Part shown: positions 3,853 to 42,870 of the stretch, piece by piece
Position numbering within the stretch: the first letter of the stretch is position 1
Layout: every line of letters begins with the position of its first letter
Virus record (IMG/VR): IMGVR_UViG_3300037249_000709
Location: 32,001-96,000 of that record
Length of the DNA: 64,000 bases
Direction: 5' to 3' (one strand)
Origin: a virus
Taxonomy: Duplodnaviria; Caudoviricetes
Made by a program: the position numbers and the translations under genes
Notes under the pieces: model-generated
The model's database searches: none
What the model was told of the DNA's origin: nothing
The model's input: only the letters and a program-made list of their open reading frames with translations

Positions 3853-4332
3853 TTAGTTATTAACGCACTCGAATCTATATTCCATTATTCCGCTATAATT
3901 ACCTGCCTTGCCATAATCTTCATAGGTTATGCCAAAATCTTTTGTTGCAAAACCTTGACTAATATCATTTGCTGAAAATGACACAAGTGGTGTAACAGTG
4001 TCAACATTGGTGTTTAATGCGTTATTCACAAATCCGCACCTAATAGAACCGCTTCCGCTTTCGTGGGTTAGCGATATGGAATTAGCATCGTCTATGTTGG
4101 TTACATAAACATTAACCGAGCAATCATTTTCCAAATCGGCATCATTTATTGTAACTGGCACATAATTACCACTATTCAAGTCAATGGTTGCCGGAATTGT
4201 AATATTGTATCTACTGTAAATATGTGCTTTGATTTCTGCTTGACCGCTGCCAGCAATGTTTTCAGCATATGCCGTAAATGAGCTACATAAAACCATAGCA
4301 ATAGCCATAATAATTGATATTCTTTTCTTCAT
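3853..4332 (-). CDS. putative secreted beta-rich protein
   Basis: signal peptide MKKRISIIMAIAMVLCSSFTAYA. Confidence 0.65.
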   Translation of the reverse strand: MKKRISIIMAIAMVLCSSFTAYAENIAGSGQAEIKAHIYSRYNITIPATIDLNSGNYVPVTINDADLENDCSVNVYVTNIDDANSISLTHESGSGSIRCGFVNNALNTNVDTVTPLVSFSANDISQGFATKDFGITYEDYGKAGNYSGIMEYRFECVNN

Positions 4333-4338
4333 ATTACC

Positions 4339-4791
4339 TCACTTAGAATTTATTTCAATATTGATTGTACCGCTATTCAAGACGGATTTATCATTTAACG
4401 AATAACACTTATAAGCTAACAAGCAATTTTTGTATAATCCTCTTTTTAGCGGTAATGAAATCTCTATCTCGCTTATTCTTTCGTTCGGCTCGATATAATC
4501 CGACTGCCAAAGCTCTATTCCATTTGAAAGACGTAACTCAATTTTAAAATAGCAGGAGTTTTCTGCTGGATTATAAAAGTCAACTTGCTGCGTTGTTTTT
4601 CCTGCGTCAAAATTCAAACCGCTAACAGCCGGGATTACTATTGTATCTTCTGAATCATATGGAACGAAATCAAGGGTGCTAATATTAGGTATAGCAGTTT
4701 CATCGGGTATCACATCAGTTTCGTTTGTGTCAATGATTACTAATGCTATTACAACCACAACAAAAGCAATTATTCGTCTTTTAATTTTCAT
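4339..4791 (-). CDS. putative membrane-anchored protein
   Basis: N-terminal hydrophobic segment after basic residues. Confidence 0.65.
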   Translation of the reverse strand: MKIKRRIIAFVVVVIALVIIDTNETDVIPDETAIPNISTLDFVPYDSEDTIVIPAVSGLNFDAGKTTQQVDFYNPAENSCYFKIELRLSNGIELWQSDYIEPNERISEIEISLPLKRGLYKNCLLAYKCYSLNDKSVLNSGTINIEINSK

Positions 4792-5818: not shown

Positions 5819-6508
5819 TCACTTCTTATCTGTAGCTCTTTTGATTGCCTCCGCAAGCACATCAATTAGCTTTTCTGTTTCGGCAGCTTCTCGTCTTGCC
5901 TGCCGTCTTGCTCTCTTTTCTGCCAACTTCTTTGCTCTCTGCTTCTCTGCTTCGTCAGCTCTACGAGCTTCATCTTCCCATTCTCTATTTTCTTTCATTA
6001 CCTTCATAGCGTGACGAATAACAGAGTTGTAAACCTTTGTGCCGCTTACCGAATCACTAACAGACATTAGCTTCTTTGTGATACAAATAGAAATTCCTGT
6101 TTCAAGAGAATACGTATCTTCGTCGCTTAGTATAGCCTTCTCGGTTGTTCCATCTGCAAAATCAACCATAACAACCTTCGGCTCGTCCGTGTTAGGCTTA
6201 TTTACAACTCTAACATCTTCAATATTTGGCATTAGGTAAGCATAATAACCATATGCATCTCTTATTTTAATACTATCGTCACCATAGCGAACATTACTCT
6301 TTTTCTCATTGTTATCATAACCAATAGCTGGTGTTCTTGGTTGTAATGAGGTTATGTTTGGAATAAAATCTCCGACGTAAGATATCCCATAATCATGTTT
6401 CCTAATCGCCTTAATCCAATTAGCTTCGATTTCCTTTTTAATTTCCTCGTTGTTTTTGTAATCACACATTTTAAATCTCCCTTTATTATATTTGTTTTTT
6501 TTGCACAA
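5819..6508 (-). CDS. hypothetical phage protein
   Basis: 229-aa ORF with coiled-coil C-terminus; start may be downstream at MCDYK. Confidence 0.65.
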   Translation of the reverse strand: MCKKNKYNKGRFKMCDYKNNEEIKKEIEANWIKAIRKHDYGISYVGDFIPNITSLQPRTPAIGYDNNEKKSNVRYGDDSIKIRDAYGYYAYLMPNIEDVRVVNKPNTDEPKVVMVDFADGTTEKAILSDEDTYSLETGISICITKKLMSVSDSVSGTKVYNSVIRHAMKVMKENREWEDEARRADEAEKQRAKKLAEKRARRQARREAAETEKLIDVLAEAIKRATDKK

Positions 6509-6539
6509 TACCTTTTAATTATTTAAGGCTTTGTGCATA

Positions 6540-6621
6540 TGGTGAGGCTGGTGGGACTTGAACCCACAACGCTTACGCAACGGGTTTTGAGACCGCCCTA
6601 TCTGCCAATTCCAGCACAACC
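6540..6621 (-). tRNA. tRNA-Leu(CAA), 3' part; interrupted at acceptor positions 3-4 by an IS607-type element
   Basis: GGTTGTGCTGGAATTGGCAGA...CTCAAAA...GTTCAAGTCCCACCAGCCTCACCA; the original 5' GAGG is at 8099-8102. Confidence 0.85.
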
Positions 6622-6790
6622 GTTACTGAAAACTTATAAAAAGTTATAAAGCAAAAACTTTTATGTTCCATTCCTTATTCAACGTGTCCATTTTTGATAT
6701 GACAAGCCATTATCTACTCATGTTTGGTATAACACTCCGAAGGCGTAAATTCCCGACTAACGTATCGGTACACATTAACAGCACTTGTTT
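6622..6790 (-). ncRNA. predicted TnpB omegaRNA scaffold (guide = adjacent tRNA-Leu sequence)
   Basis: non-coding right end downstream of tnpB, where TnpB omegaRNAs are encoded. Confidence 0.6.
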
Positions 6791-6793
6791 TAG

Positions 6794-7954
6794 CTATGCT
6801 GTCAATCCATAATTCATTAAGTTGACACTTGCCTGAAAATCTCTATCAATCGTTAGTCCGCATTCTGAACAATGATAAATTCTGTCAGATAGTTTCAAAT
6901 CGTTTTTGATATTTCCACAACAGGAACACATTTTACTTGATGGATAGTATCTATCTGCTATCACAAGCTCAATGTTGTGCCAATGACACTTGTATTCTAT
7001 CTGTCTGTAAAATTCATAAAAACATTGTTCCTGAACCACTCTTGACAAGTATTTATTTTTCATCATACCGGTTACATTCAAATCTTCTAAAACAATAAAC
7101 TTTGGCTTTCGGTTTATGATTTCGGAAGTGACAGAATGTAAATAGTTATGACGAATATTTGTTAGTCTGTGATTTGCTTTTAAAAGATTTCTTTCACTTT
7201 TTACAATGTTGCGTGTTTTACAGAAACAACCTTCTTCCTTGTTTTTTAAGTATTTTTTAGATACTCTGCGTTGCAACCTACGCTGTTTCTTCTTTATTTT
7301 TCTAATCTTTTCAGTTTTGTTAATATTCGGATAGACATTACCATCAGAACAAATTGCTAAATCTTTGATGCCAATATCAATTCCTATTCCTTGATTTGTT
7401 GGCTTTTCTTGTGATTCTTCACAATCAATTCCAACGGAAATCCACCAATTTAAGCCATCAAAAGTGATTCGTGGATTGGAATATTTTACATTAACGGGAA
7501 TCCTATTAGACTCTGCCAATTTTACATAATTGAATTTCTGCTTGTTCTTCTTTCGGCTTGTTGTCAGCTTTTCTAACTTTACATGAGTAGAAGTAAAACT
7601 GATTTTGGCAGTATCAGCATAAAAAGATGGTCTGGATTTTCTTTTGCTCTTGAATTTCGGAAATCCTGCAATACCTCTAAAAAAGTTTTGATATGCTGCG
7701 CAAGCATCTTTGATGGCTTGTTTTGTAATGTTATTGCTATAATCATTTAGCCATGTATATTTTGACTGTTTTTTCAGTTCTGTGAAAATTCTGCGAAGTT
7801 CGTAATGGGAAATAAACGAATTTTCGGCTTCGTGATTTGCTTTTTCATAGCCTAATGCCCAATTATAGGCAAATCTTGCTGCCCCCACACATTCAAACAA
7901 CTTTGTTTTCTGTTTGTTGTTTGGAAGGAGCATTACTTTGATGGTCTTAATCAT
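6794..7954 (-). CDS. tnpB: RNA-guided endonuclease TnpB
   Basis: RuvC GIDIG / VLEDL / DRD, CSCC-CSEC zinc finger, N-terminal ARFAYNWAL. Confidence 0.95.
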   Translation of the reverse strand: MIKTIKVMLLPNNKQKTKLFECVGAARFAYNWALGYEKANHEAENSFISHYELRRIFTELKKQSKYTWLNDYSNNITKQAIKDACAAYQNFFRGIAGFPKFKSKRKSRPSFYADTAKISFTSTHVKLEKLTTSRKKNKQKFNYVKLAESNRIPVNVKYSNPRITFDGLNWWISVGIDCEESQEKPTNQGIGIDIGIKDLAICSDGNVYPNINKTEKIRKIKKKQRRLQRRVSKKYLKNKEEGCFCKTRNIVKSERNLLKANHRLTNIRHNYLHSVTSEIINRKPKFIVLEDLNVTGMMKNKYLSRVVQEQCFYEFYRQIEYKCHWHNIELVIADRYYPSSKMCSCCGNIKNDLKLSDRIYHCSECGLTIDRDFQASVNLMNYGLTA

Positions 7955-8106
7955 TTTCTGTAAGTTCCTTTATCATTTTTTTACTTTATTCGCACGCTAT
8001 AATAGCAATAACCATTTACACTTTTATGATGTGGTCTTAACTTGCTGGATTTATCCCATTATTACAATATTTTATAGGAATGTTCTAACTATTAAAACCC
8101 TCATAG

Positions 8107-8178
8107 TAACCGGTACGGGACTCGAACCCGCGTCTCCGCCTTGAAAGGGCGATGTCTTAGCCTCTTGACCAACCGGTC
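8107..8178 (-). tRNA. tRNA-Glu(TTC)
   Basis: cloverleaf, loop CTTTCAA, GTTCGAGTC. Confidence 0.92.
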
Positions 8179-8183
8179 ATAAG

Positions 8184-8257
8184 TGGGAAGTATGAGAATT
8201 GAACTCATTCCGACAGTGCCACAAACTGCCGTGCTAAACCATTACACTAACAACCCC
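8184..8257 (-). tRNA. tRNA-His(GTG) with G-1, A73 and two U.U acceptor mismatches
   Basis: loop TTGTGGC; acceptor GGGTTGT/ACTTCCC. Confidence 0.8.
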
Positions 8258-8264
8258 GTATGAG

Positions 8265-8337
8265 CCTGAGTGGTGAGACTCGAACTCACGGCATCTTGCT
8301 CCCAAAGCAAGCATTCTACCAACTGAATTACACCCAG
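8265..8337 (-). tRNA. tRNA-Pro(TGG)
   Basis: cloverleaf, loop TTTGGGA. Confidence 0.9.
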
Positions 8338-8426
8338 ATGTTGCCTTGCGACCAACAAGACATATTTTTTTCATTCGCGGACTCACATCACAAGTCAATT
8401 CGATTGCCGCAAAGGTCGATGTTCAG

Positions 8427-8497
8427 AGTGGATAAAGGGAATCGAACCCTTGTCTTTTGGTTGGAAACCAAGTATTAACCCTCTTAACTATACCCAC
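8427..8497 (-). tRNA. tRNA-Gly(TCC)
   Basis: loop TTTCCAA, GTTCGATTC, U73; short D arm. Confidence 0.8.
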
Positions 8498-8761
8498 ATA
8501 TACAATTTGCGGAGTCAACCTACCCTATCCGCAATCAGAATACCGTACAATTTTGATAATGACTACCAAAACTGCCATATCCCTAACCAAAATTGCACCG
8601 AAATCCACACGGTACGACGAATCACAACCTCTGCAAAGGCTATAATCCTTTTGCCAGACCAACCTTGCAGGATTACTCTGACTTGGATTCGCATTTTAAC
8701 ACTTATGAACGTGTTGGGCTGCTGGCACACCCATCAAGTTTAACGACATTGACAAGTCAAG

Positions 8762-8839
8762 TTTCGAGGATAGGAATCGAACCTATGTTTGCCAATATCG
8801 TGCAAAGAACAGCTGTATAACACTAAGCACTACCTCGAA
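8762..8839 (-). tRNA. tRNA-like gene with non-canonical D and anticodon arms
   Basis: perfect acceptor TTCGAGG/CCTCGAA and T arm ATAGG-TTCGATT-CCTAT; anticodon arm does not fold canonically. Confidence 0.55.
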
Positions 8840-8857
8840 ATATTTATTGAATTTAAG

Positions 8858-8941
8858 TGCCGGCGAAGGGACTTGAACCCTCACGAGTATTTCATCGACG
8901 GATTTTAAGTCCGTTGTGTCTGCCAATTCCACCACACCGAC
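8858..8941 (-). tRNA. tRNA-Leu(TAA)
   Basis: loop CTTAAAA, long variable arm. Confidence 0.93.
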
Positions 8942-9076
8942 ATAAAGAGAACTCAGCTTTACCTCGCCCTTAACGACCATTCTCTTGTTACGGCTAATAC
9001 CGTACTGCCGACTGCCATACTCGCAGCTTTACTACTTCTAATCTTCCCTATTCAAGAGTAGCATTGAATAGCATAT

Positions 9077-9166
9077 TGGCGACAGAGGTAGGATTTGAAC
9101 CCACGGAGGGTTTCCCCCCAACGGTTTTCAAGACCGCTGCTTTAAGCCAAACTCAGCCACTCTGCC
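9077..9166 (-). tRNA. tRNA-Ser(TGA)
   Basis: loop CTTGAAA, long variable arm, G73-CCA. Confidence 0.93.
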
Positions 9167-9172
9167 ACATAG

Positions 9173-9252
9173 TGCGGATAACAGGATTTGAACCTGCACG
9201 CTTTCGCACCAGAACCTAAATCTGGCGTGTCTGCCTATTCCACCATATCCGC
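9173..9252 (-). tRNA. tRNA-Leu(TAG)
   Basis: loop TTTAGGT, long variable arm. Confidence 0.93.
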
Positions 9253-9380
9253 ATATTCCGCAAGACCCTCAAACAACTTGCGGCAATTTGGCTAACCAAC
9301 ATAGAAAGGAGATACTACAAACAAAACACATCAACACAACAAAAACACAAAAGTTAGCCGGGTTTTAACTTATACTCAAA

Positions 9381-10145
9381 TTACAACTGTGAGAAGAATA
9401 AATCCATAAGATTCCATTTTCTTCTACCTACCCAAACATCAGAAGAAAACATTGGTGTGTACCAAATTTCTTGACTTGATGTTGGTGTCGGAAACAATGC
9501 CGATTTTCCGGTCAGCGGATTTGTCAGCGTATCGGCAATCACTACATAGCCTGGACAGCCAAGCAATGAAAGCTGTATATAACACATAAGTCCTGCTACC
9601 CTATCAATATCCTGCGCCACAAACAAGACGTGGTTTTGATAATTGATTTCTCTATCCTTTAACGCATTCGCCATAGCAATTAGCATTGCTCCTGCGCCGC
9701 AAGCAGGGTCATTAACCGAAATCCAGCCTTTTTCTTTTACTTCTTCTTCTGCAAAATCAGCATTGATTGCTGCCATTGTTCTACATACACAGTACGGGGT
9801 GAAGAATTGACCTTTCCAATGGCTACCAAGATTTAGCCCCATAAACAATTCTCCGAGAAAATCCTGCTCTGGATTTTCTTCTAATGCTTCAACAATATAA
9901 GCAAATAGCTTAGAGCTTTTATCTACTCCGCCAAGTCTTTCAATGCAATCTGCATACTCTTTTTCTCGCTTGTCGTGTGTTTCGCCCTCTCTATCAATAG
10001 AGTTTGCAATAGCACAAGCCGTTGCCGCGATAAAATCCGCCCACACACTCCAAGAGCTTCTTGATACGCAAAGTTCTCCAAATGTCTTGATGAAAGATTT
10101 TGCGTAATCGTTTCTTATGATTGTAGTTTTTACTGTTTTAGCCAT
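9381..10145 (-). CDS. N-6 DNA methylase-like protein (no NPPY/F motif visible)
   Basis: GQFFTP and DPACGAGAML SAM-binding motifs. Confidence 0.75.
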   Translation of the reverse strand: MAKTVKTTIIRNDYAKSFIKTFGELCVSRSSWSVWADFIAATACAIANSIDREGETHDKREKEYADCIERLGGVDKSSKLFAYIVEALEENPEQDFLGELFMGLNLGSHWKGQFFTPYCVCRTMAAINADFAEEEVKEKGWISVNDPACGAGAMLIAMANALKDREINYQNHVLFVAQDIDRVAGLMCYIQLSLLGCPGYVVIADTLTNPLTGKSALFPTPTSSQEIWYTPMFSSDVWVGRRKWNLMDLFFSQL

Positions 10146-10170
10146 ACGAACATCACCTCAAAATAATAGT

Positions 10171-10245
10171 GGGTAATTTGGGATTCTCATACTGTTATAA
10201 CTTTAAACCAAATTATGTAATTAGAAGGAAGAATCCCAATAGCCC
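10171..10245 (-). ncRNA. Rot-associated Y-RNA-like stem-loop, copy 1
   Basis: GGG-CUA-UUGGGAUUCU-UCCUUCU-loop-AGAAUCCCAA-AUUA-CCC. Confidence 0.75.
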
Positions 10246-10298
10246 GTTCTCTACTCTCCCGGCGTTCGACCGAGAGAGTGAAATGGTGAGTCGTTTTG

Positions 10299-10373
10299 TA
10301 TCGGAAATTTTAGTTTCTAATCAAATACTTAAAATGGATATTTTTTTAGAAGGAAGAAACTAATTAGCCGATA
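10299..10373 (-). ncRNA. Rot-associated Y-RNA-like stem-loop, copy 2
   Basis: UAUCGG-CUAA-UUAGUUUCU-UCCUUCU-loop-AGAAACUAA-AAUUU-CCGAUA. Confidence 0.75.
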
Positions 10374-10380
10374 ATTTATT

Positions 10381-10461
10381 GGTCGGAAAGGTGGAGTTCT
10401 AAAATCTAATTCTTCAAAATCTGTATTATTCTATAAGAAGGAAGAACTACAATAGCCGACC
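10381..10461 (-). ncRNA. Rot-associated Y-RNA-like stem-loop, copy 3
   Basis: GGUCGG-CUAU-UGUAGUUCU-UCCUUCU-loop-AGAACUCCA-CCUUU-CCGACC. Confidence 0.75.
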
Positions 10462-10477
10462 TCTTGACTACTCTTAT

Positions 10478-10524
10478 ATTATATCATATTTTCTCAAATT
10501 TGTCAAGTAGTTATTTGGGTGTAT
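10478..10524 (-). promoter_or_regulatory. class-A promoter directly upstream of ncRNA copies 3-2-1
   Basis: TTGACA-N17-TATAAT plus ACCCAAATAACTAC box. Confidence 0.85.
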
Positions 10525-10542
10525 TTAAAAAATCAAAAAAAT

Positions 10543-12774
10543 TTATAACATTTCGCCCATATAATAATCAACATCAAACGGAGTGTAGATTTTTACATCT
10601 TTCACTTTCTCAACAACTTCTATCTCTTTGGTTTTTGGATTAACAACCTCAACCTTTTCGGTAACTGGTGTTGTATCAAGTGAAAATATGACATCCGCAT
10701 CTTCTCTCTTAGCAACTATCTCGCCCCTTGCCGCCACATTGAGCTTTACCAAATCATAAAGGTTTGGCTTTCTTAAATGTGTCATAGCATAGCATACAGC
10801 CGTCACGCCTTTAAGATTGCTCTCGATGTTGTTGCCGAAATAATGCGTTCTTGTTTGTGCTATTGGCATTGCAATATCACACCACACAAAACTTCTATCA
10901 ACGCAATCAAACACAACCGGAATACACACCTTACTATCAGAGTTTAAGTCGATATTCATTTCAACTGTTGATGGTTCAAAGATTTCACCTGAGTTCATAT
11001 CTTCTCTTTCCATCCAACCGAACGTCGAATTGGGCATTTGGTTGAAATGCTGCCCTGTGTAGCTATAAACTTGGAAAGCTACATACCTACCGCGTTCTGC
11101 AATTCTGTCAATGTTGATGTCGATAAACTCTGCAACACCTTGTCCATCGGGTGAACCACCATCTGTCCTATCGCCAGAGTGTATAGCAAGTAGGTCAGAT
11201 GAACGCAGCCGAGTATATGAAACGTGTTCAACAAAGTTCCAATGCTCATCATAAATTGCAGCAGACAAATCAAGGTCTACTCTGCCAGACCAGCCGCCAC
11301 ATGGAATGTTTGTCCACCAACAATATGCCCTTACAACATTAGAATTACCCTTGGTGTGTACACGGCTTCCTCTTACAAGATGTTTGCCACTCGTGCTTGC
11401 AGAACGCTGACTAAATGGCACGAGGAAATCCTTGAAGTCGTAGTCGATAAACACCTTGCCAAGATACTCCTTGCTCTTAAATTGACTTATAAGAGCATTG
11501 TTGCAAATTTTGACAATACTATCGCAAACATTTGTGTTAATGGGCGATAAATCATTGCGGATAGAAACAACATTCGAGAGCTTGCCTTTTGGGAAAAAGA
11601 CACGGTAATTATCTTCTTTGTATCTATCTGCGAAGTGCTGCCTAACTTGGAGCAAAACAGGAGTGGAAACTTCTTTCGCTACATTAGCAAAGCAATTTAC
11701 GATATAATTTTTATCCTTGTTATTAGCTTCTCTCAATAACTTATCCAACTGCCTTGCAAAGTCGCCTGGTCTTGACTTCAACATTTCCGCCGCACCCAAC
11801 ATATCCTTATTCCTAATTGCTTGCTGAACAAGTCCGGGTACGAATAGCGGCTTCTTATCATTGCGGATTTTCTGGAAAGCCTCGACAACGCTTTTATACT
11901 TTAACTGCTTGTATTCAGATGGGTGTACAATTTCCCCTACACGAATCCATTCGTATTGGTATCTATACATATCCTCTAAGATATTACCGCAGCCAGCAAG
12001 CAAGTCCATTATCATACGGCGCTCGTATCTCCGCAAGCTCCTATAATGTGTCTTTTCAGCAAGAGAAATGTCTCCATCAGACAAACAGGTGATTAGTCGC
12101 AAAACATCTGTTGCAGTCTTATAATACCTCTGTATCTTGTCTGCTTTCTTAAATGCCGCATTATCCAAAATCAGCTTACCGAGCAAAGCAACATTTTCTT
12201 TAAGAGGAATTTCTTCCGGCAGGACTTCGTAAAAGTTGTAATGTGTACTAATAAATTCCGACACATCCGCCTTGTCCTGCTCACTCAAACTCGTCTTGCT
12301 ACCCAAAAGATTCTTGAATATCTCAACTAAATCCTCATAAGTGCCGAGCGAGAGAACTTTCAGCTTAACATCGTCTATTAGCGGAAATCTTTCTTTTACC
12401 TCATAGCTCGGAACGATTTTGCCGTAACTCCAATAATGAACCATTGCATTGAAAAATAGCTCAAATTCACTTGCTTCGATTACCTGCTGCGGAAAATTCG
12501 GATAGAAAGGTTTATATACCTTGTCAGCTCCCACGAGCTTCTTTAGCTTATTAACAAGGTCAAAATAAAACTCCCTCCTATCATCATCGTCCAAAACCGT
12601 AACTGCATCAAACAGGCTTCTATCGAATGTAAAACCATATGCTTGAATATTTTTCATTATGGTTGCTGTCTGCCTACGGTCGTCATCCGTGCAAAATGGC
12701 AATGGAGCAATCGAGCTTGAAAGCTTTACTTTATTTCTTCGTCTTAGTAACACTTCGTTAATTTCGTTGTACAT
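10543..12774 (-). CDS. Rot-like protein (TROVE/Ro-related helical repeats plus C-terminal TerD domain)
   Basis: YKPFYPNFPQQV, TATDVLRL, RPGDFARQLDKLLR; TerD motifs RVDLDLSA, HSGD, AEFIDI, YSYTG; RBS AAAGGAG before ATG 12774. Confidence 0.75.
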   Translation of the reverse strand: MYNEINEVLLRRRNKVKLSSSIAPLPFCTDDDRRQTATIMKNIQAYGFTFDRSLFDAVTVLDDDDRREFYFDLVNKLKKLVGADKVYKPFYPNFPQQVIEASEFELFFNAMVHYWSYGKIVPSYEVKERFPLIDDVKLKVLSLGTYEDLVEIFKNLLGSKTSLSEQDKADVSEFISTHYNFYEVLPEEIPLKENVALLGKLILDNAAFKKADKIQRYYKTATDVLRLITCLSDGDISLAEKTHYRSLRRYERRMIMDLLAGCGNILEDMYRYQYEWIRVGEIVHPSEYKQLKYKSVVEAFQKIRNDKKPLFVPGLVQQAIRNKDMLGAAEMLKSRPGDFARQLDKLLREANNKDKNYIVNCFANVAKEVSTPVLLQVRQHFADRYKEDNYRVFFPKGKLSNVVSIRNDLSPINTNVCDSIVKICNNALISQFKSKEYLGKVFIDYDFKDFLVPFSQRSASTSGKHLVRGSRVHTKGNSNVVRAYCWWTNIPCGGWSGRVDLDLSAAIYDEHWNFVEHVSYTRLRSSDLLAIHSGDRTDGGSPDGQGVAEFIDINIDRIAERGRYVAFQVYSYTGQHFNQMPNSTFGWMEREDMNSGEIFEPSTVEMNIDLNSDSKVCIPVVFDCVDRSFVWCDIAMPIAQTRTHYFGNNIESNLKGVTAVCYAMTHLRKPNLYDLVKLNVAARGEIVAKREDADVIFSLDTTPVTEKVEVVNPKTKEIEVVEKVKDVKIYTPFDVDYYMGEML

Positions 12775-12823
12775 ATCATATCTCTCCTTTGGTAATTTGA
12801 AAATCATTTTTTTCTTTTAGCCT

Positions 12824-12888
12824 AATCGGAAATTGCGGTTTCATAAAGTTTACCCCATCTTTAGAAGGAAGAAACCGCATAGCCGATT
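12824..12888 (-). ncRNA. Rot-associated Y-RNA-like stem-loop, copy 4
   Basis: AAUCGG-CUA-UGCGGUUUC-UUCCUUCU-loop-GAAACCGCA-AUUU-CCGAUU. Confidence 0.75.
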
Positions 12889-12899
12889 TTTGAGATTAA

Positions 12900-12979
12900 G
12901 CAAGGAAATTTTAACAACTAAATTATAAATTTCAAGTCTATATCTTCACAAATAGAAGGAAGTTGTTAGATAGCCTTGC
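12900..12979 (-). ncRNA. Rot-associated Y-RNA-like stem-loop, copy 5
   Basis: GCAAGG-CUAUC-UAACAACU-UCCUUCU-loop-AGUUGUUA-AAAUUU-CCUUGC; starts 3 nt after tRNA-Lys. Confidence 0.75.
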
Positions 12980-12982
12980 AAG

Positions 12983-13055
12983 TGCGCCAGATGGGACTCG
13001 AACCCATGCTACCACGATTAAAAGTCGTGTGCTTTACCATCTAAGCTACTGGCGC
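12983..13055 (-). tRNA. tRNA-Lys(TTT)
   Basis: cloverleaf, loop CTTTTAA. Confidence 0.93.
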
Positions 13056-13172
13056 AAATTTGCAACAACCGCCATTGATTAGTAGCGATGGGTAGTTTTA
13101 ATTCTTCCCAAGAATACAAGCAGTTTATATACCGTCAGACTGTTAGCGGTAATCTTTGTTGTTGCGTTTTAC

Positions 13173-13247
13173 TGGTACTGAGTAATGGAGTCGAACCAAT
13201 GTCGGTCGCTTATAAGGCAACTGCTCTTACCGTTGAGCTAACCCAGC
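13173..13247 (-). tRNA. tRNA-Ile(TAT)
   Basis: loop CTTATAA, A73-CCA. Confidence 0.88.
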
Positions 13248-13262
13248 GTTTATATTTAAAAG

Positions 13263-13350
13263 CGGAGGGAGCGGGACTCGAACCCACACACCGTTGCCGG
13301 CTACTCACAGTTTAGCAAACTGCTCCCTTACCAATTAGGGTTATCCCTCC
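13263..13350 (-). tRNA. tRNA-Ser(GCT)
   Basis: loop TTGCTAA, long variable arm, G73. Confidence 0.92.
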
Positions 13351-13353
13351 ATT

Positions 13354-13443
13354 TGGCTGGGCGGGTGAGAATCGAACTCACGAGCGACCTTGTGGGTCTT
13401 GCAGGGGTCAAAGTCCTGTGCCTTACCGCTTGGCGACCGCCCA
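13354..13443 (-). tRNA. tRNA-Gln(TTG) with long variable arm
   Basis: U1-A72, loop CTTTGAC, G73-CCA; variable arm GACC-CACAA-GGTC. Confidence 0.85.
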
Positions 13444-20180: not shown

Positions 20181-20450
20181 AATGACACATCCTTTCTTTG
20201 CTTTCGTTTGTTGTGTTTATCTTGTATTAGTATTATACCATAACTTTACACTTTTGTCAAGTAATTATTTGGGTGTATTCAAAATATATTTTTATTGCCG
20301 CCAATCGTGTTTAATTTCACCATTGACGGCGTTATTATTATGTCACTATGACATTGATTCATTCATTTTTTGTAAATAAAAGAGTTGTTTTATCTTAAAC
20401 CAACAACGACAAATGATAAAGTCGCTCATAAGCGAAGCGTTGAGCTACTT

Positions 20451-20590
20451 CATACTAATACATTATTACTATTATAATACTTATAAGAATCTTAATAGTA
20501 TTAGTATGTCTATTAAGAATCTTATATTTATAACTATAGTCTAATACTTATACTATAATATATGATTAAGGAAATGCAATTTCTTAACAT
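20451..20590. repeat. AT-rich palindromic dispersed repeat, copy 1 of 4
   Basis: CATACTAATAC...GTATTAGTATG plus tail TAAGGAARTGCAATTTCTTAACAT. Confidence 0.85.
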
Positions 20591-21412: not shown

Positions 21413-21477
21413 TGAATAAATCTATTTTGAATAACTGATAGTGGTTTTTCATTATCAAAAAATTTTGTAAGAGAACT

Positions 21478-21599
21478 CATACTAATACGTTATTACTATT
21501 ATAATACTTATAAGAATCTTAATAGTATTAGTATGTAATAGTTAGAGTCTTATTACTATTATTATAATATATGATTAAGGAAGTGCAATTTCTTAACAT
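21478..21599. repeat. AT-rich palindromic dispersed repeat, copy 2 of 4
   Basis: near-identical 58-bp core and tail. Confidence 0.85.
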
Positions 21600-21610
21600 T
21601 TTTTGAAATC

Positions 21611-22086: not shown

Positions 22087-22257
22087 TCAACAATCCTGTT
22101 CGACTTCTTCTACTTCAATATCGTCATATGCGGTATTAGCAACTGGGCTTCGCATATCGCTTACAAATTCCATATGAGCTATATCAACCGCCTCATCTTC
22201 CGATTCTGCTTCTACTTCGTATGTGTAGTATTGTGTAAATGTTACCTCAAATTTCAT
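22087..22257 (-). CDS. small acidic DpnD/PcfM-like protein, 56 aa (not in ORF track)
   Basis: MKFEVTFTQYYTYEVEAESEDEAVDIA...; GGAGGTG RBS. Confidence 0.7.
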   Translation of the reverse strand: MKFEVTFTQYYTYEVEAESEDEAVDIAHMEFVSDMRSPVANTAYDDIEVEEVEQDC

Positions 22258-22314
22258 TTATTTCACCTCCTCTGACTTGACTTTCATACTACATAATCGG
22301 CAACTTTGTAGCAC

Positions 22315-22345
22315 AAAAGTAAACTCCTGCCGTTTCCGACAGGAG
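22315..22345 (-). terminator. intrinsic terminator / riboswitch expression platform
   Basis: CTCCTGTCG-GAAA-CGGCAGGAG followed by TTTACTTTT. Confidence 0.75.
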
Positions 22346-22357
22346 CAACTTTCGTTT

Positions 22358-22438
22358 CCTATCGGTCAAGCATTACCACCTTACATAAGCAGGTTGGTGT
22401 ACGGTCATTGAGCTTGTCTCTCGCGCACTCTAAATAGG
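22358..22438 (-). promoter_or_regulatory. SAM-I-clan riboswitch aptamer (P4-less, SAM-I/IV-variant-like)
   Basis: P1 CCUAUU/GAUAGG, UAGAG, P2 with GAGAGA...CUC-AAUGA, P3 ACCAACCU/AGGUGGU, pseudoknot CAAG/CUUG; sigmaA promoter at 22450-22478. Confidence 0.75.
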
Positions 22439-22489
22439 TTTTTTCTTTTATTATAACACACAATTTATTATTTGTCAAGTATTTTTTTA

Positions 22490-28443: not shown

Positions 28444-31400
28444 TCAACTATTTTCTATGTCATTTAAAGCATTTTTAATACAATCTAATTTTACACTAAT
28501 CGAAATCAACTGATTGATTGTATAAACTCTTGCATCGTATTTCAACCCTAATTCTAATTCTTCAAAGGCATCAAGAGCTTTATTGACAGATTTTTTCAGA
28601 TTTTCTATATCTTCAATAGTCTGCTGTCTATGTTGCTCAATCAGATTTCTCATATTCATTCCTCCTACAATTTTAATACTATTAAAGCACCTTGTCACTT
28701 TTAGATACGCAAGTGTAGATTACTAATTTTCCATATACTATCCACAACTTAAGAAAAAAATACAAATTTTGTGGCAGACGTTTTGTCGCTCCGTTCCTGT
28801 ATTCTATGCAGTACCGCTTTACTCATAAAATGCTTAAGTTGTGGACAGTGATTCCCGTCTATTGTATTTCCTTCGGCTATTATGCTATCTCAATCCACCA
28901 CAATTTAGGCTTTTCAGCCCAATCTTTAGGATTATCTGCATTAGTCGTTCCCCAATTACGGTAAAGAACAGCAACACCACGTTTGTTCTTGTATACTACT
29001 TCAAGACTTTCACAGTTGTTACCTCTTCTACAACTGCCGGTGTAATCTGCTGACCATATTTTGCCTACCGTAGCCTCTTTAAAATCCTTTGCGTAAAGAT
29101 TAATTTCTTCGCCTCTACCGCCTTGAAAATCGCAAAAGTCACTTCTAAGAGTTACAATCGGAGCTTCTACCAATACACTTGTTTTCATAATGATTCCTCC
29201 TATAATCTTAATTAAAGCACCTGATTACTTTGGATATATCAGTGTAGCTTTACAGCGTGAATATTGTATCCACACTGCCATCAGCGTTATGCTTTTGTTT
29301 ATGATTTAACTGTAATAGTTAGCGTATAACCGTTTTCTTCCGTACATAAATTATTTAATTCCATTAGCTGTTATAAGCATAGATTTGAATATATACATCA
29401 AGGTCGGGATATTCTGTGCCGAAAAATCCGTTAGCCCTACAATTAAAACAGATTTCTGATTCCGCCTTTAAGATTTCAAAATGGTCATTTGAACGGCTTG
29501 CAATCCTCGCAGCGGTCTGACAATCTTCCATGAAGCTCTCTTTGGTTATTTCTTTCATATCATTTATGATTTTCCTAACTTCGGGCATCATATCCAATGT
29601 CAAGTGTTTTCTCATCTCAGGCGTAATTTTAACTTTCATAGCTCATTCTCCTTTGCTTAATACAATTCGTCAAAAGCCTCTATGATTCTCCTTTTGCGTT
29701 CTTCGTCATTGTCCGCAGATGTTTCGTAAATGCTCCAGGTACAGTCAAAGCCGCAGCGATTAGTTACTTCTTCGATTCTGCCGTCAACAATCAGTCGCAT
29801 AAATATCTTTGTGCCGTATGTGTGTTCTGTTATTTTCCGTACCTTATCATCAAGGAAAAATCCTGTTGATTTGTGATTTATTAAATACCTTCTTACGCAA
29901 TCATAAGCCTTATCAATAGTCAGGTAGTTTTCAACATAATCAACATACTCGCCGTTTTCAAACAGCACAACACAAAAACTTCTGCCGTCCTTATTTCTCA
30001 CAACCGTGATTTCGTCGCCATCCTTTGTGGCTCTTATGAGATTATGCAGTTTATTGAAGTATTCCTCACAAGTATAATCCCCATCTATGATGTGCTTAAA
30101 TCTCATTTCTGTCATTTTATCACACCTCCAGTTCTGATAAAGCCGCTGCCAATTCTTGCAGCATACCGTCAATATCTTCTGCATCGTGTACCAATTCCCT
30201 TGCTGACGGAATGCCACTCACGCCGTTTCTTTTTGCCTCTATCCGCATTTCGATATGCTCATCAATATCAAAATCGGCAGCATATTCTCTAACTTCTTTG
30301 ATGATGTTTTCCTTGCCAACTGTAAAGCTAAAATCTTCTCCTGCTGGACTATACTGATAAAACGATACCGTGTCGCCGTCATCTTCTACAGACCAGCCAA
30401 GAGCTTCCGATGTTTTGATTATTTTATTCAACATTGTTATTTCCTCCTTGCTTAATGGAATATTCCCGCTCGTATTCTGTCTTGCTAAGAATTTGATTGA
30501 CGAACCACTCCGCAGTTCTGTTACCTCTGCCCTTGTCGGCTTCTACATTATCCCATACTATTCGTGTTAAATCTTCGCTTTCTTGTCTGTCATATCCTTT
30601 TGCTTGTATCATTTTCATCACTCGGAGAAAATTTCTATGTGTTCGATTTCGCATTTTCATTCCTTACACCTCGTTCCATTTTCCGACTTCATAAGCTGTT
30701 GAGCCGATGCTTATTGTAACAGTTCCTTCGTGTGTGATACCTTGACCTACCAAGTTTATTCTTTTGGTTATTCTGCAAAGCGGCATATTATATAATGACT
30801 TATCGTACACAAGCAGCTCGACGGATTTTCCGCTTTTGGAGATGCTGCATATCTTTATGTGGTCGATGTTCCTTTCCCATCCACCTCTATCTACTATTGC
30901 ACACCTCTCTTTAAGAGGAATAATGCTTCTGTTATATACTGTCATAATCTGTTTCATATTATCCCTCCTGTATTATATTTCCATCTCTGCAAAAGAAGTC
31001 ATCTCAAAAGTCAAATCTTCCGGCGTTCTTGCGAATTTTTCAACCCATACCGAAAAATGCTGCGAAAGATACGATTCAAGATTTTCAAGATTTTCCGGCT
31101 TTTCAGATATAGTTTTGATTGCCTTGCAAAACTGCTCTGCTAATATCTTGTTGTTCGCTTCCATATCATCATCTCCTTGTGTTGTTAGCACTCTTGATAC
31201 TTTAGACTGTCAAGATGTAGCCTTAACAGCAGCTGTTCTGGCTGCTGCCTATCGGTCGTCGTGCGTTTAATATCCATAATGGAGTATTTGTAGGTCGTTC
31301 CACATATCAGGATTAAATCCTTTCAGCAAACCTAAAAACGGTTTTAATCGTCTATAATTATCTCTCTCGATTTCGGATTCCAGCCATTCGATAACCTTGT

Positions 31401-32198
31401 CGATTTTGGCAGATTTTATTTTGTCACCGTATCTATCCCTGCTCGTTGTGTGGTTGCCATCTTCCGCATATATTTCATAATCTATTTCTTCTGTGAATAA
31501 TTTGTAAAACGAATAATCCATTCTACACATTTCCATTGTGGCAATAATTTCTGCATATACTTGCTCAGGCTGATTTTCTGGCTTCCAGCGTGTTACATCG
31601 ACTATAAAAATTTTGCATTCATAACCCATAAATCATTCCTCCATTTATAATATAGTTATTTGGATTGTTTCTTTACTCAAAAAAATAATTTCCATTTACT
31701 TACTATAATAATTATACCATACTTCTATTAGTATGTCAATACTTTTTTTAAAAAAATTCGTTTATTATCTAAAATCATAAAGTTTGCAGTTTTCTTCAAT
31801 CCAATCAATGCCAGAGAATAAGTCAGCCATATTCTCGCCTATATCTTGCCAGTTAGATGGGCAGTTAAATGTTCTTGCCATTTCAGCCATAAGTTGATAT
31901 GCAAATGCTGCCATCTCATAGTCTTTGTGTCTGTACGCCGATGTAATCATATCTTCTATAATCTTTTCCATAATGCAGCCTCCCTAACATCAATTATTAT
32001 TTAAATGGTTTACTCTTACATTCTTTTTAAATAGTCCTGCCGTTCCTTTACCGTCTTAAAGCTCAGCACTTTGTTAAGATGTGCGTTTATATCTTCCGAC
32101 TTAATAGCAGGCTTCGGCGGCATTAAACTTTCTTTAGCTCCGATGATTGCCCATACTATAAGGATTCCTACTATATATAAAATTCCCATTTTATTCAC
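28444..32198 (-). CDS. cluster of small early hypothetical ORFs (28444-28698, 28880-29188, 29364-29639, 29657-30217, 30120-30434, 30424-30660, 30664-30957, 30973-31164, 31267-31629, 31765-31971, 32016-32198)
   Basis: co-oriented, strong GGAGG RBSs. Confidence 0.6.
29215..29294 (-). ncRNA. variant type-P5 twister-like ribozyme
   Basis: P5 AAGCAU/GUGCUU; GCU-GA-UGG; P1 hairpin; UAA-AGCU-AC-A; P4 CUGAU/AUCAG with UCCAAAGU. Confidence 0.65.
31188..31264 (-). ncRNA. variant type-P5 twister-like ribozyme
   Basis: P5 GCAC/GUGC; ACC-GA-UAG; P1 hairpin; UAA-GGCU-AC-A; P4 UCUUGA/UCAAGA with UCUAAAGU. Confidence 0.65.
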
Positions 32199-41320: not shown

Positions 41321-42397
41321 AAAAATGCCTCCTTAAATTCACGCCGTCGGCGTGTGTTTGTTTTGTTGACATCTTTATTTTATCATACTGTTAACAGTGC
41401 GTCAATATGAATTTTTAAAAATTTCGATTTTTTGGTGATATTCGTAACTTTTGCACAAATTATTATTTCTGATTTGTTGGGTTTTTATGTATATTTTCGT
41501 GATTTTAATTCTTTTTTAGAAATAAAAATCGGATAGAGCTGCACCAACTTTTGAAAATCGCCTATTGTATTATTATATTCTTATATAGGCAAATTTTGAA
41601 AATTTTTGCAAGCATTTATTTTCTTTTTGAGAATAAAGGGAATTGTTACATTTTGTAATTGTTGTTACATTTTTGAAGTGTGAATTTGAAAATGATTCTC
41701 ATTTTCATTTTTGAAAATTTCGGCAATAATAAGCATACCGAAATATTTTCTCGAAATTCTATATTATAAAAAAATTCAATTTTGAAAAATCATCATTTTT
41801 TAAAAATAAAATGTTCGTTTTATTGCAATGCTATACAAAACTAAATAATCAAAAATAGGCGGCTTCAAGTCCGAAAAATGCACAATTACGGACTTGTACC
41901 CCTCAATTATTGGTACTTTAAATCACTAAAGCATTGACGGGGGTACTTTTACACTTTAACTCATTAAAGCGATGCGACTCATACCCCTGTGTGCTTCCCC
42001 TCACTCTTTGCTCAAAATTTCCCGAAAATTAAAAAAAGTTCAAAATTCTCAAATTCCCCTCAATAATTGAGGCATTACCGAAATTTATCTCGAAAATAAA
42101 AAAATCCTCAATTTATGAGAGTTTTCGTAAATTTCCCGAAATTCTTTTTGATTTTATAAGTCCTCAATTATTGGTAACTTTTTCGGTATTTTTTAAAATT
42201 ATAAAAATTCGTTAATCAATGCCGGACTTAGATATAAAAAAGTTCTCAATTTAAGGGAACTTTAATTTATTAGCAATAACTATCAAATATATGTTTTAAC
42301 TAATATAACCCGAATTTTAATAGATTTTCGCGACTTAATATTAGCGAAATTTTATAGGATTTTTCTTTAAAAAAGACGATTTTTTAATAAACGAACT

Positions 42398-42543
42398 CAT
42401 ACTAATACATTATTACTATTATAATACTTATAAGAATCTTAATAGTATTAGTATGTTCTTTTAAGAATCTTATATTTATTATTATAGTAATTATAATAAT
42501 ACTATTACTATAATATATATAAGGAAGTGCAATTTCTTAACAT
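42398..42543. repeat. AT-rich palindromic dispersed repeat, copy 3 of 4
   Basis: identical 58-bp core to copy 1. Confidence 0.85.
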
Positions 42544-42743
42544 TTTCATTGTGGGAGCTGCTACTTATATGCCGCAAAGTATTATTTATATTTCCCTATT
42601 GCTTTAAAATTGCCTACAAGCCTTTCTAAGCCACGATATATTTATGGGGTATAGTTTCACATCTTAATTGCATTTCGTTGAATACAGGGCATTCTGGGGC
42701 ATTTTAGAGCTATTTTTAGAAATCATCTTAGGTTTCACATTAT

Positions 42744-42860
42744 AATACTAATACATTATTACTATTATTATCTTTATTAGAATCACAATAGTATTAGTAT
42801 TTAGATAGTGAGAATCCTATTACTATAATATATGATTAAGGAAATGCAGTTTCTTAACAT
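42744..42860. repeat. AT-rich palindromic dispersed repeat, copy 4 of 4 (diverged)
   Basis: ATACTAATAC...GTATTAGTAT plus tail. Confidence 0.75.
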
Positions 42861-42870
42861 TTTTTGAAAA

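Follow-up and report, generated by a model that had tools for sequence, protein, structure and literature searches.

The locus analysed here raises the question of what a phage could gain from a riboswitch of the SAM-I class placed ahead of small genes outside of methionine metabolism. It lies on a 166,766-bp IMG/VR virus record of a rumen phage, 100% complete according to CheckV, of which we analysed the 64,000 nucleotides from base 32001 to base 96000 (here called the window, to which positions refer unless stated otherwise). The record holds a single SAM-I match, and near-identical DNA is found in bovine and goat gut metagenomes of ∼13 studies. The original prediction had described a promoter, a SAM-I-clan aptamer, a terminator hairpin and the genes behind them as one phage-borne unit through which SAM gates counter-defence or exclusion. 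Based on the evidence collected in this study, the unit is very likely a working SAM-I riboswitch devoid of helix P4, OFF at high SAM, that at low SAM would release four genes whose products may restore the SAM supply or compensate for its lack. Its elements and those around it are compiled in Table 1.

Table 1. Coordinates of the riboswitch unit and of other features of the phage and its relatives
Feature	Position	Strand	Basis or remark
Sigma-70-type promoter, TTGACA-17-TATAAT, extended TG	22478-22450	-	12/12 consensus matches
SAM-I aptamer without P4	22440-22356	-	Rfam RF00162, 48.8 bits vs gathering score 44.4
Antiterminator	22365-22336	-	CCGAUAGGA (22365-22357, P1 3' strand) pairs UCCUGUCGG (22344-22336, terminator 5' arm)
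Intrinsic terminator	22346-22313	-	10-bp hairpin, 6 G-C pairs, tail UUACUUUUGU
Gene 1, 56-aa highly acidic protein	22257-22087	-	ORF, GGAGG ribosome-binding site
Gene 2, 111-aa GP17-like protein	21946-21611	-	Pfam PF17420, 81.6 bits vs cut-off 25; phrog_1510, 2.6e-27
AT-rich intergenic element, ∼130-210 bp, 11-bp inverted repeat (CATACTAATAC/GTATTAGTATG)	21473-21608		separates genes 2 and 3
Gene 3, MRTI family protein, 106 aa	21412-21092	-	likely start is the second Met, 21397
Gene 4, 92-aa zinc-ribbon protein (CPFC...CCQC)	21073-20795	-	phrog_9107, 2.7e-10
Further copies of the AT-rich element, same orientation, between small-gene cassettes	20450-20590, 42393-42456, 42500-42546, 42745-42869
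RAGATH-18 RNA	6671-6743	-	73.1 bits
Twister ribozyme, type P5	37898-37958	-	58.5 bits
13 tRNA genes, two clusters	6543-13443	-
Phage MetK (SAM synthetase), 355 aa	G000 contig 1 ∼29057-30124 (L151:3057-4124), outside the window	-
FGase-like amidohydrolase as first gene behind the switch	loci L040, L077, L078, L080, L088, L091, L102, L122, L129, L138, L140, L144

Aptamer structure and class

The covariance model of SAM-I aligns to the window RNA over its whole length (E = 3.9e-8 over the 64-kb window) with a score above the gathering threshold, so that the check with the SAM model came out in favour of the original assignment. The RNA of 85 nt comprises P1, P2 with K-turn-type GA/UGA bulges, P3, J3/4 and both strands of a putative CAAG/CUUG pseudoknot, all as previously drawn. 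A custom covariance model (R1) gives it 86.4 bits, and its relatives score 52-60 bits with RF00162. The fourth helix of SAM-I is missing, as had also been noticed: the 18 model positions of P4 shrink to 1 base in the window alignment, and all 136 relatives present merely a G...C around CUUGA(A/C) at that site. The SAM-I/IV model (RF01725), which the original prediction had put beside SAM-I as a suitable check, gave 22.9 bits against its cut-off of 41.1, and SAM-IV (RF00634) had zero matches in the window; both identities were rejected, and from the clan it is the SAM-I assignment that stood.

The fold is borne out by covariation among 136 distinct aligned aptamers. The proposed partners are paired in 90% of cells, compared to 26-39% when they are slid against each other by 1-3 columns, and double-sided changes amount to 324 cells vs 103 ± 12 in shuffles. 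Fourteen pairs vary on both sides, and compensatory changes are found in P1, P2a, P2b and P3. The paired fraction is 97.6% in P2a, 100% in P2b (A-U 73, G-C 62) and 93% in P3, the basal pair of which is C-G in the window and mostly G-C in the relatives (GC 116, CG 6), in line with the compensatory exchange suspected from the window alone. The CAAG of the P2 loop is complementary to the CUUG of J3/4 in every sequence, with both strands fixed by the search patterns so that covariation is not visible there. Among the 136 sequences, CAACC, GGUG and the A-U/U-A pairs of P1 are invariant and the AGAG of J1/2 is at least 90% conserved. The conserved core (J1/2 AGAG, the bulged A in P3, GGUG, P1 A-U/U-A) we take to make the SAM contacts seen in the 2GIS structure, and the aptamer as a whole is under clear purifying selection.

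Natural SAM-I aptamers without P4 exist, are included in the RF00162 family and are reported to respond to SAM with lower affinity; designed P4-less aptamers respond to SAM as well (PMC12714719). The lack of this helix hence does not speak against function or family membership. One could suppose that P4 was lost together with a shift in ligand, to SAH or to a SAM derivative, given a compact architecture unlike the canonical four-helix junction and downstream genes that are mostly not those of the classical S-box. Such a shift is highly improbable, however, considering that the core just described is retained throughout the relatives, that metK is regulated at 13 loci of the same lineage, and that P4-less aptamers, natural and designed, respond to SAM (PMC12714719). 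Recognition of SAM, with shut-off at high SAM, is the strong expectation from homology, because family membership, a conserved pocket, a balanced switch and placement of the same lineage before metK all point to it. The reduced affinity reported upon loss of P4 (PMC12714719) suggests by analogy that the set-point of the switch may differ from that of the four-helix form.

Expression platform and proposed working

The promoter matches the consensus at every position, just as predicted, and an equivalent layout is found upstream of homologous riboswitches at other loci. The predicted GC hairpin with its U tract is an intrinsic terminator, the hairpin proper extending over 22346-22323 and being followed by TTACTTTTGT; it is the sole minus-strand terminator of such quality from the riboswitch promoter to ∼20440, and no further terminator was found between it and that position. 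The 5' arm of the terminator can pair alternatively with the 3' strand of P1. The minimum-free-energy structures predicted for the leader and for the nascent RNA both contain this antiterminator, and RNA in which the terminator is still incomplete folds as P2, P3 and antiterminator. The calculated energy of the antiterminator fold is -46.4 kcal/mol, compared to -43.8 kcal/mol for P1 plus terminator, ligand and tertiary contacts not being counted. These calculations suggest read-through as the default state, from which the ligand must tip the switch toward termination, and the architecture is accordingly modelled as that of a classical S-box OFF switch that would terminate once SAM stabilises P1. 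A terminator was detected in 133 of 142 distinct related leaders. Complementarity between the 3' strand of P1 and the 5' arm of the terminator, counted at -7 kcal/mol or better, is found in 106 of the 133 terminator-bearing relatives, compared to 23 with shuffled strands.

To proceed through the unit, transcription is envisaged as follows. Host RNA polymerase would read from the consensus early promoter. When SAM is plentiful, its binding would lock P1, CCGAUAGGA would be occupied, the terminator would form, and transcription would end ahead of the genes. At low SAM, CCGAUAGGA would pair with UCCUGUCGG and the polymerase would continue into the four-gene unit, leading to production of the 56-aa acidic protein, the GP17-like protein, the ∼100-aa MRTI protein (the name given here to a family after its usual N-terminus) and the zinc-ribbon protein. 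The purpose would be for the phage to notice when the infected cell runs short of methyl donor and to respond with proteins that restore the SAM supply or compensate for its loss. Detection of a SAM shortfall is the most likely purpose because the phage encodes a SAM synthetase (MetK) of its own together with five or six DNA methyltransferases, of which at least two are C5 and three are N6/N4 enzymes (clustered at 5-22 kb of G000 contig 1, outside the window). For the same reason SAM supply should matter to this phage, which from its gene set appears to be a heavy SAM user. No riboswitch was found upstream of the phage's own metK.

Lineage and cargo of the switch

The riboswitch lineage is large and highly conserved. 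It takes in ∼40 IMG/VR phage contigs (27 from two pattern scans and 12 from a protein-based scan) and a single Ruminococcus phage from GenBank; a scan of GTDB genomes with a pattern that demands the P4-less junction added at least 120 loci. The GTDB matches listed come nearly all from gut or rumen MAGs, mostly of Bacillota, with Elusimicrobia, Gastranaerophilales, Synergistes and others also represented. Of the SAM-I copies in five GTDB genomes, the P4-less one (84-92 nt, 52-56 bits) stands beside a canonical copy (∼100 nt, 71-80 bits) or is the sole SAM-I. A BLAST search of 50,697 GenBank phage records returned one relative, Ruminococcus phage NatCom_28274 (PV036439.1; RF00162 59.9 bits), in whose record the riboswitch (L001, 3970-4074) appears as a 34-aa hypothetical CDS, XTK83980.1. 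The "P4" that cmscan draws in this RNA was discarded, reading of the sequence showing the antiterminator pairing instead. In rumen metagenomes, contig depth on the aptamer segment is 5-50x that of the flanks, which argues for many other replicons in the same samples carrying the aptamer. Among the listed runs containing this stretch there was no RNA run; a single run labelled metatranscriptomic, and probably DNA, covers only the aptamer-like part, via other contigs.

Two variations of layout were observed within the lineage. At three loci (L045, L092, L139) two P4-less riboswitches share a strand within 500-950 nt, and each precedes a small gene of its own. Leaders of the Heliusvirales type (L001:4125-4175, L003-L015) have a second hairpin of ∼-16 kcal/mol 3' of the terminator, in which UACGCUCUUU pairs AAAGGAGCGUA; it may cover the ribosome-binding site of MRTI and so add translational control.

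The linkage of a riboswitch to genes is among the most reliable routes to the function of unknown genes. At 140 riboswitch sites the first downstream gene belongs to the MRTI family in 60 cases, encodes an FGase-like amidohydrolase (PF05013) in 12 and MetK in 12-13, with singletons for the remainder. The original prediction had proposed a survey of genes behind homologous switches: it uncovered non-metabolic cargo in abundance, yet also metK, and genes 1 and 2 of the window were shared with close relatives of this phage only. The reverse test, starting from the MRTI protein, found the switch directly upstream at a spacing of 80-170 nt in all 33 loci (24/24 from IMG/VR and 9/9 contigs of divergent members with enough upstream sequence), among them an FGase-MRTI fusion with plain bacterial surroundings. 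MRTI behind the switch also occurs at ordinary chromosomal sites of bacteria (neighbours SmpB, PPIase, SpoIIP, YebC), and the window protein is 38% identical to the product of the gene right behind the NatCom_28274 riboswitch (4179-4475). In Heliusvirales phages, riboswitch and MRTI form a lone one-gene unit. As judged from these linkages, MRTI appears to be the ancestral, near-obligate cargo of the switch, and the connection would tie the family to SAM shortage.

The MRTI family comprises 446 clusters at 50% identity, mostly of 90-130 aa, with zero matches in Pfam, PHROG or PADLOC. Two AF2 models were obtained (pLDDT 77 and 89.9, the latter a confident one). The best PDB match by Foldseek, at E 0.94, was the row of a MetQ methionine-binding protein and is not significant; a wide VIA-align comparison gave a best Z of 3.7-3.9, with no match to a solved fold; comparison of a profile with the sequences in the PDB stayed at E >0.4; and the ESM Atlas search returned unnamed clusters of ∼100 aa only. 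Complex prediction of the phage MetK with MRTI returned a score of 0.00, which counts neither way. No conserved second gene was found 3' of MRTI, and recurring "ORFs" at that place were dismissed as antisense readings of a convergent gene. Among fusion partners, FGase alone looked meaningful, being fused to MRTI in some GC-rich bacteria (P0135, L183-L186); a 2-hydroxyacid dehydrogenase-MRTI fusion was set aside as it may be an artefact of gene calling.

The metK gene stands directly behind a P4-less switch at 13 loci, and in six cases the MetK shares 56-62% identity with the phage's own. Because the same switch heads metK, the lineage is employed where control by SAM is to be expected. Linkage to metK and the amidohydrolase, together with occurrence in bacterial chromosomes, suggests that the core response concerns SAM or methionine supply. 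One viral contig (L018) has the switch before a 732-aa protein whose N-terminus is extremely acidic (5922-8120 -), followed by a phage metK (5544-5900 -). Our study has importance in that a well-understood SAM-I sensor is found tied almost without exception to a widespread, unannotated protein family without recognisable fold; its linkage, along with that of the FGase-like proteins, provides a testable entry into the SAM and methionine physiology of gut and rumen anaerobes. Speculatively, MRTI could itself be a low-SAM effector not previously described, and the switch a checkpoint of methylation capacity that turns on MRTI together with lineage-specific proteins for raising SAM or for protecting under-methylated DNA; we regard this extension as doubtful.

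The unit in this phage and its likely purpose

In the phage studied, MRTI comes third. Both the acidic ORF and the gp17-like gene named by the original prediction were recovered, the latter just beyond the segment first flagged, its match spanning positions 2-94 of the 98 in the PF17420 profile. Searches of Pfam and PHROGs with the four window genes returned no methionine, cysteine or SAM genes, consistent with the expectation of non-metabolic genes directly behind a phage-borne switch. The first strong promoter beyond the unit is at 20260. Gene 1 matches PHROGs of unknown function weakly, and its homologues (65-98% identical) are confined to close relatives of this phage, where they too follow the riboswitch. 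The IMG/VR search for related loci with the GP17-like protein gave zero relatives, and the literature on the function of P22 gene 17 yielded nothing usable. Genes 1, 2 and 4 were found behind no other riboswitch copy, close relatives of this phage excepted. One relative (L187) retains the order of switch, acidic gene, GP17 and MRTI, with MRTI 85% identical, and its aptamer has few differences from that of the window, the helices remaining paired (G-U to G-C); in another (L188), an unrelated 154-aa ORF takes the position of GP17. From this distribution, genes 1 and 2 appear to have joined the switch-controlled unit within this phage lineage.

The bacterial occurrences invite consideration of a passenger switch, that is, a riboswitch-MRTI cassette acquired whole from a bacterial host with SAM sensing useless to the phage itself. 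The identical cassette in bacterial contexts, with at least 120 MAG loci in several phyla, and the lone one-gene unit of Heliusvirales phages fit this scenario. Retention in ∼40 viral contigs does not, however, nor does the insertion of two phage genes under the switch in an order that a relative with 85% protein identity has preserved, nor the clear purifying selection on the aptamer; in our assessment, mere carriage is quite improbable.

The counter-defence role deserves separate discussion. According to it, low SAM, whether felt as weak protection by methyltransferases or as depletion by a competitor, would call up acidic DNA-mimic-like, GP17 and Lar-like proteins as back-up. PF17420 and phrog_1510 carry a superinfection-exclusion label, the 56-aa protein is very acidic, gene 4 shows weak Lar-like matches, the phage invests in its five or six DNA methyltransferases, and the unit is placed among early small-gene operons with strong promoters. 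The Lar matches of gene 4 are under threshold, however (PF14354, 19.6 bits vs cut-off 28.6; phrog_599, E 0.003), so that the Lar assignment was rejected, and PADLOC defence models gave zero matches to the four genes. The acidic and GP17-like genes, moreover, stand behind no other switch copy outside the phage's close relatives, the conserved cargo MRTI follows the switch at ordinary bacterial chromosomal sites too, and the same riboswitch lineage controls metK. The SAM-I unit of the original prediction thus held, whereas the counter-defence role ascribed to it has labels and sub-threshold matches in its favour, and we consider it unlikely as the main function. It is compatible with management of the SAM supply, and both could coexist. 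Taken across the family, the evidence suggests low SAM as the signal and a response more like SAM-supply management, with defence cargo at most added in this lineage; the acidic, GP17-like and zinc-ribbon recruits leave room for back-up protection when the phage methyltransferases lack SAM. On the supply reading, which we prefer, the phage would listen to the methyl-donor pool of its host while carrying a SAM synthetase and several DNA methyltransferases, which is of interest for the balance that phages strike between evading restriction by methylation and the supply of metabolites.

Regarding known systems, there exist clear analogies with the classical S-box or SAM-I riboswitches (RF00162; Bacillus subtilis yitJ and metI, Thermoanaerobacter tengcongensis metF). 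The phage switch shares with them the P1-P2-P3 core, K-turn-type bulges, complementary P2-loop and J3/4 strands for a putative pseudoknot, the core bases, the terminator/antiterminator OFF platform and the sigma-70 promoter. Unlike them, it has no P4, measures 85 nt as compared to ∼105-120 nt, is carried by a phage and precedes small proteins rather than enzymes or transporters of methionine, cysteine or SAM. The natural P4-less variants in the Rfam alignment, reported for a group of Actinomycetota (PMC12714719), have the same SAM-I core and P4 absent or vestigial, whereas the lineage described here resides in gut and rumen Bacillota, in other gut phyla and in their phages, and features an invariant CAAG/CUUG (fixed by the search patterns) together with MRTI, FGase-like, metK and ORFan genes. 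SAM-I/IV and SAM-IV are of the same clan, have a similar binding core and likewise lack an internal P4, but they possess a 3' helix and a second pseudoknot; the hairpin after P1 in the phage switch is the terminator. Host-type metabolite sensors before phage genes are also represented by the glutamine (glnA) riboswitches of cyanophages and pelagiphage-like phages such as Melnitz, described as rare (PMC9004378), whose ligand and fold differ from those of the SAM-I switch. Our literature search found no published description of a SAM-I riboswitch in a phage, though one may exist elsewhere. The RNA is best classified as a member of an established class, in a P4-less form that is likewise known already; what is new is its near-obligate tie to MRTI and the phage's own SAM-consuming gene set.

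One reservation concerns the coupling of MRTI to the switch. In the AT-rich segment between genes 2 and 3, neither a terminator nor a strong sigma-70 promoter was detected. The segment may be a promoter or operator for a phage polymerase, or a recombination joint, and in the case of a promoter for the phage's own polymerase it could partly uncouple MRTI from the switch here. In metagenomes, the same segment shows extra contig depth and indel variation.
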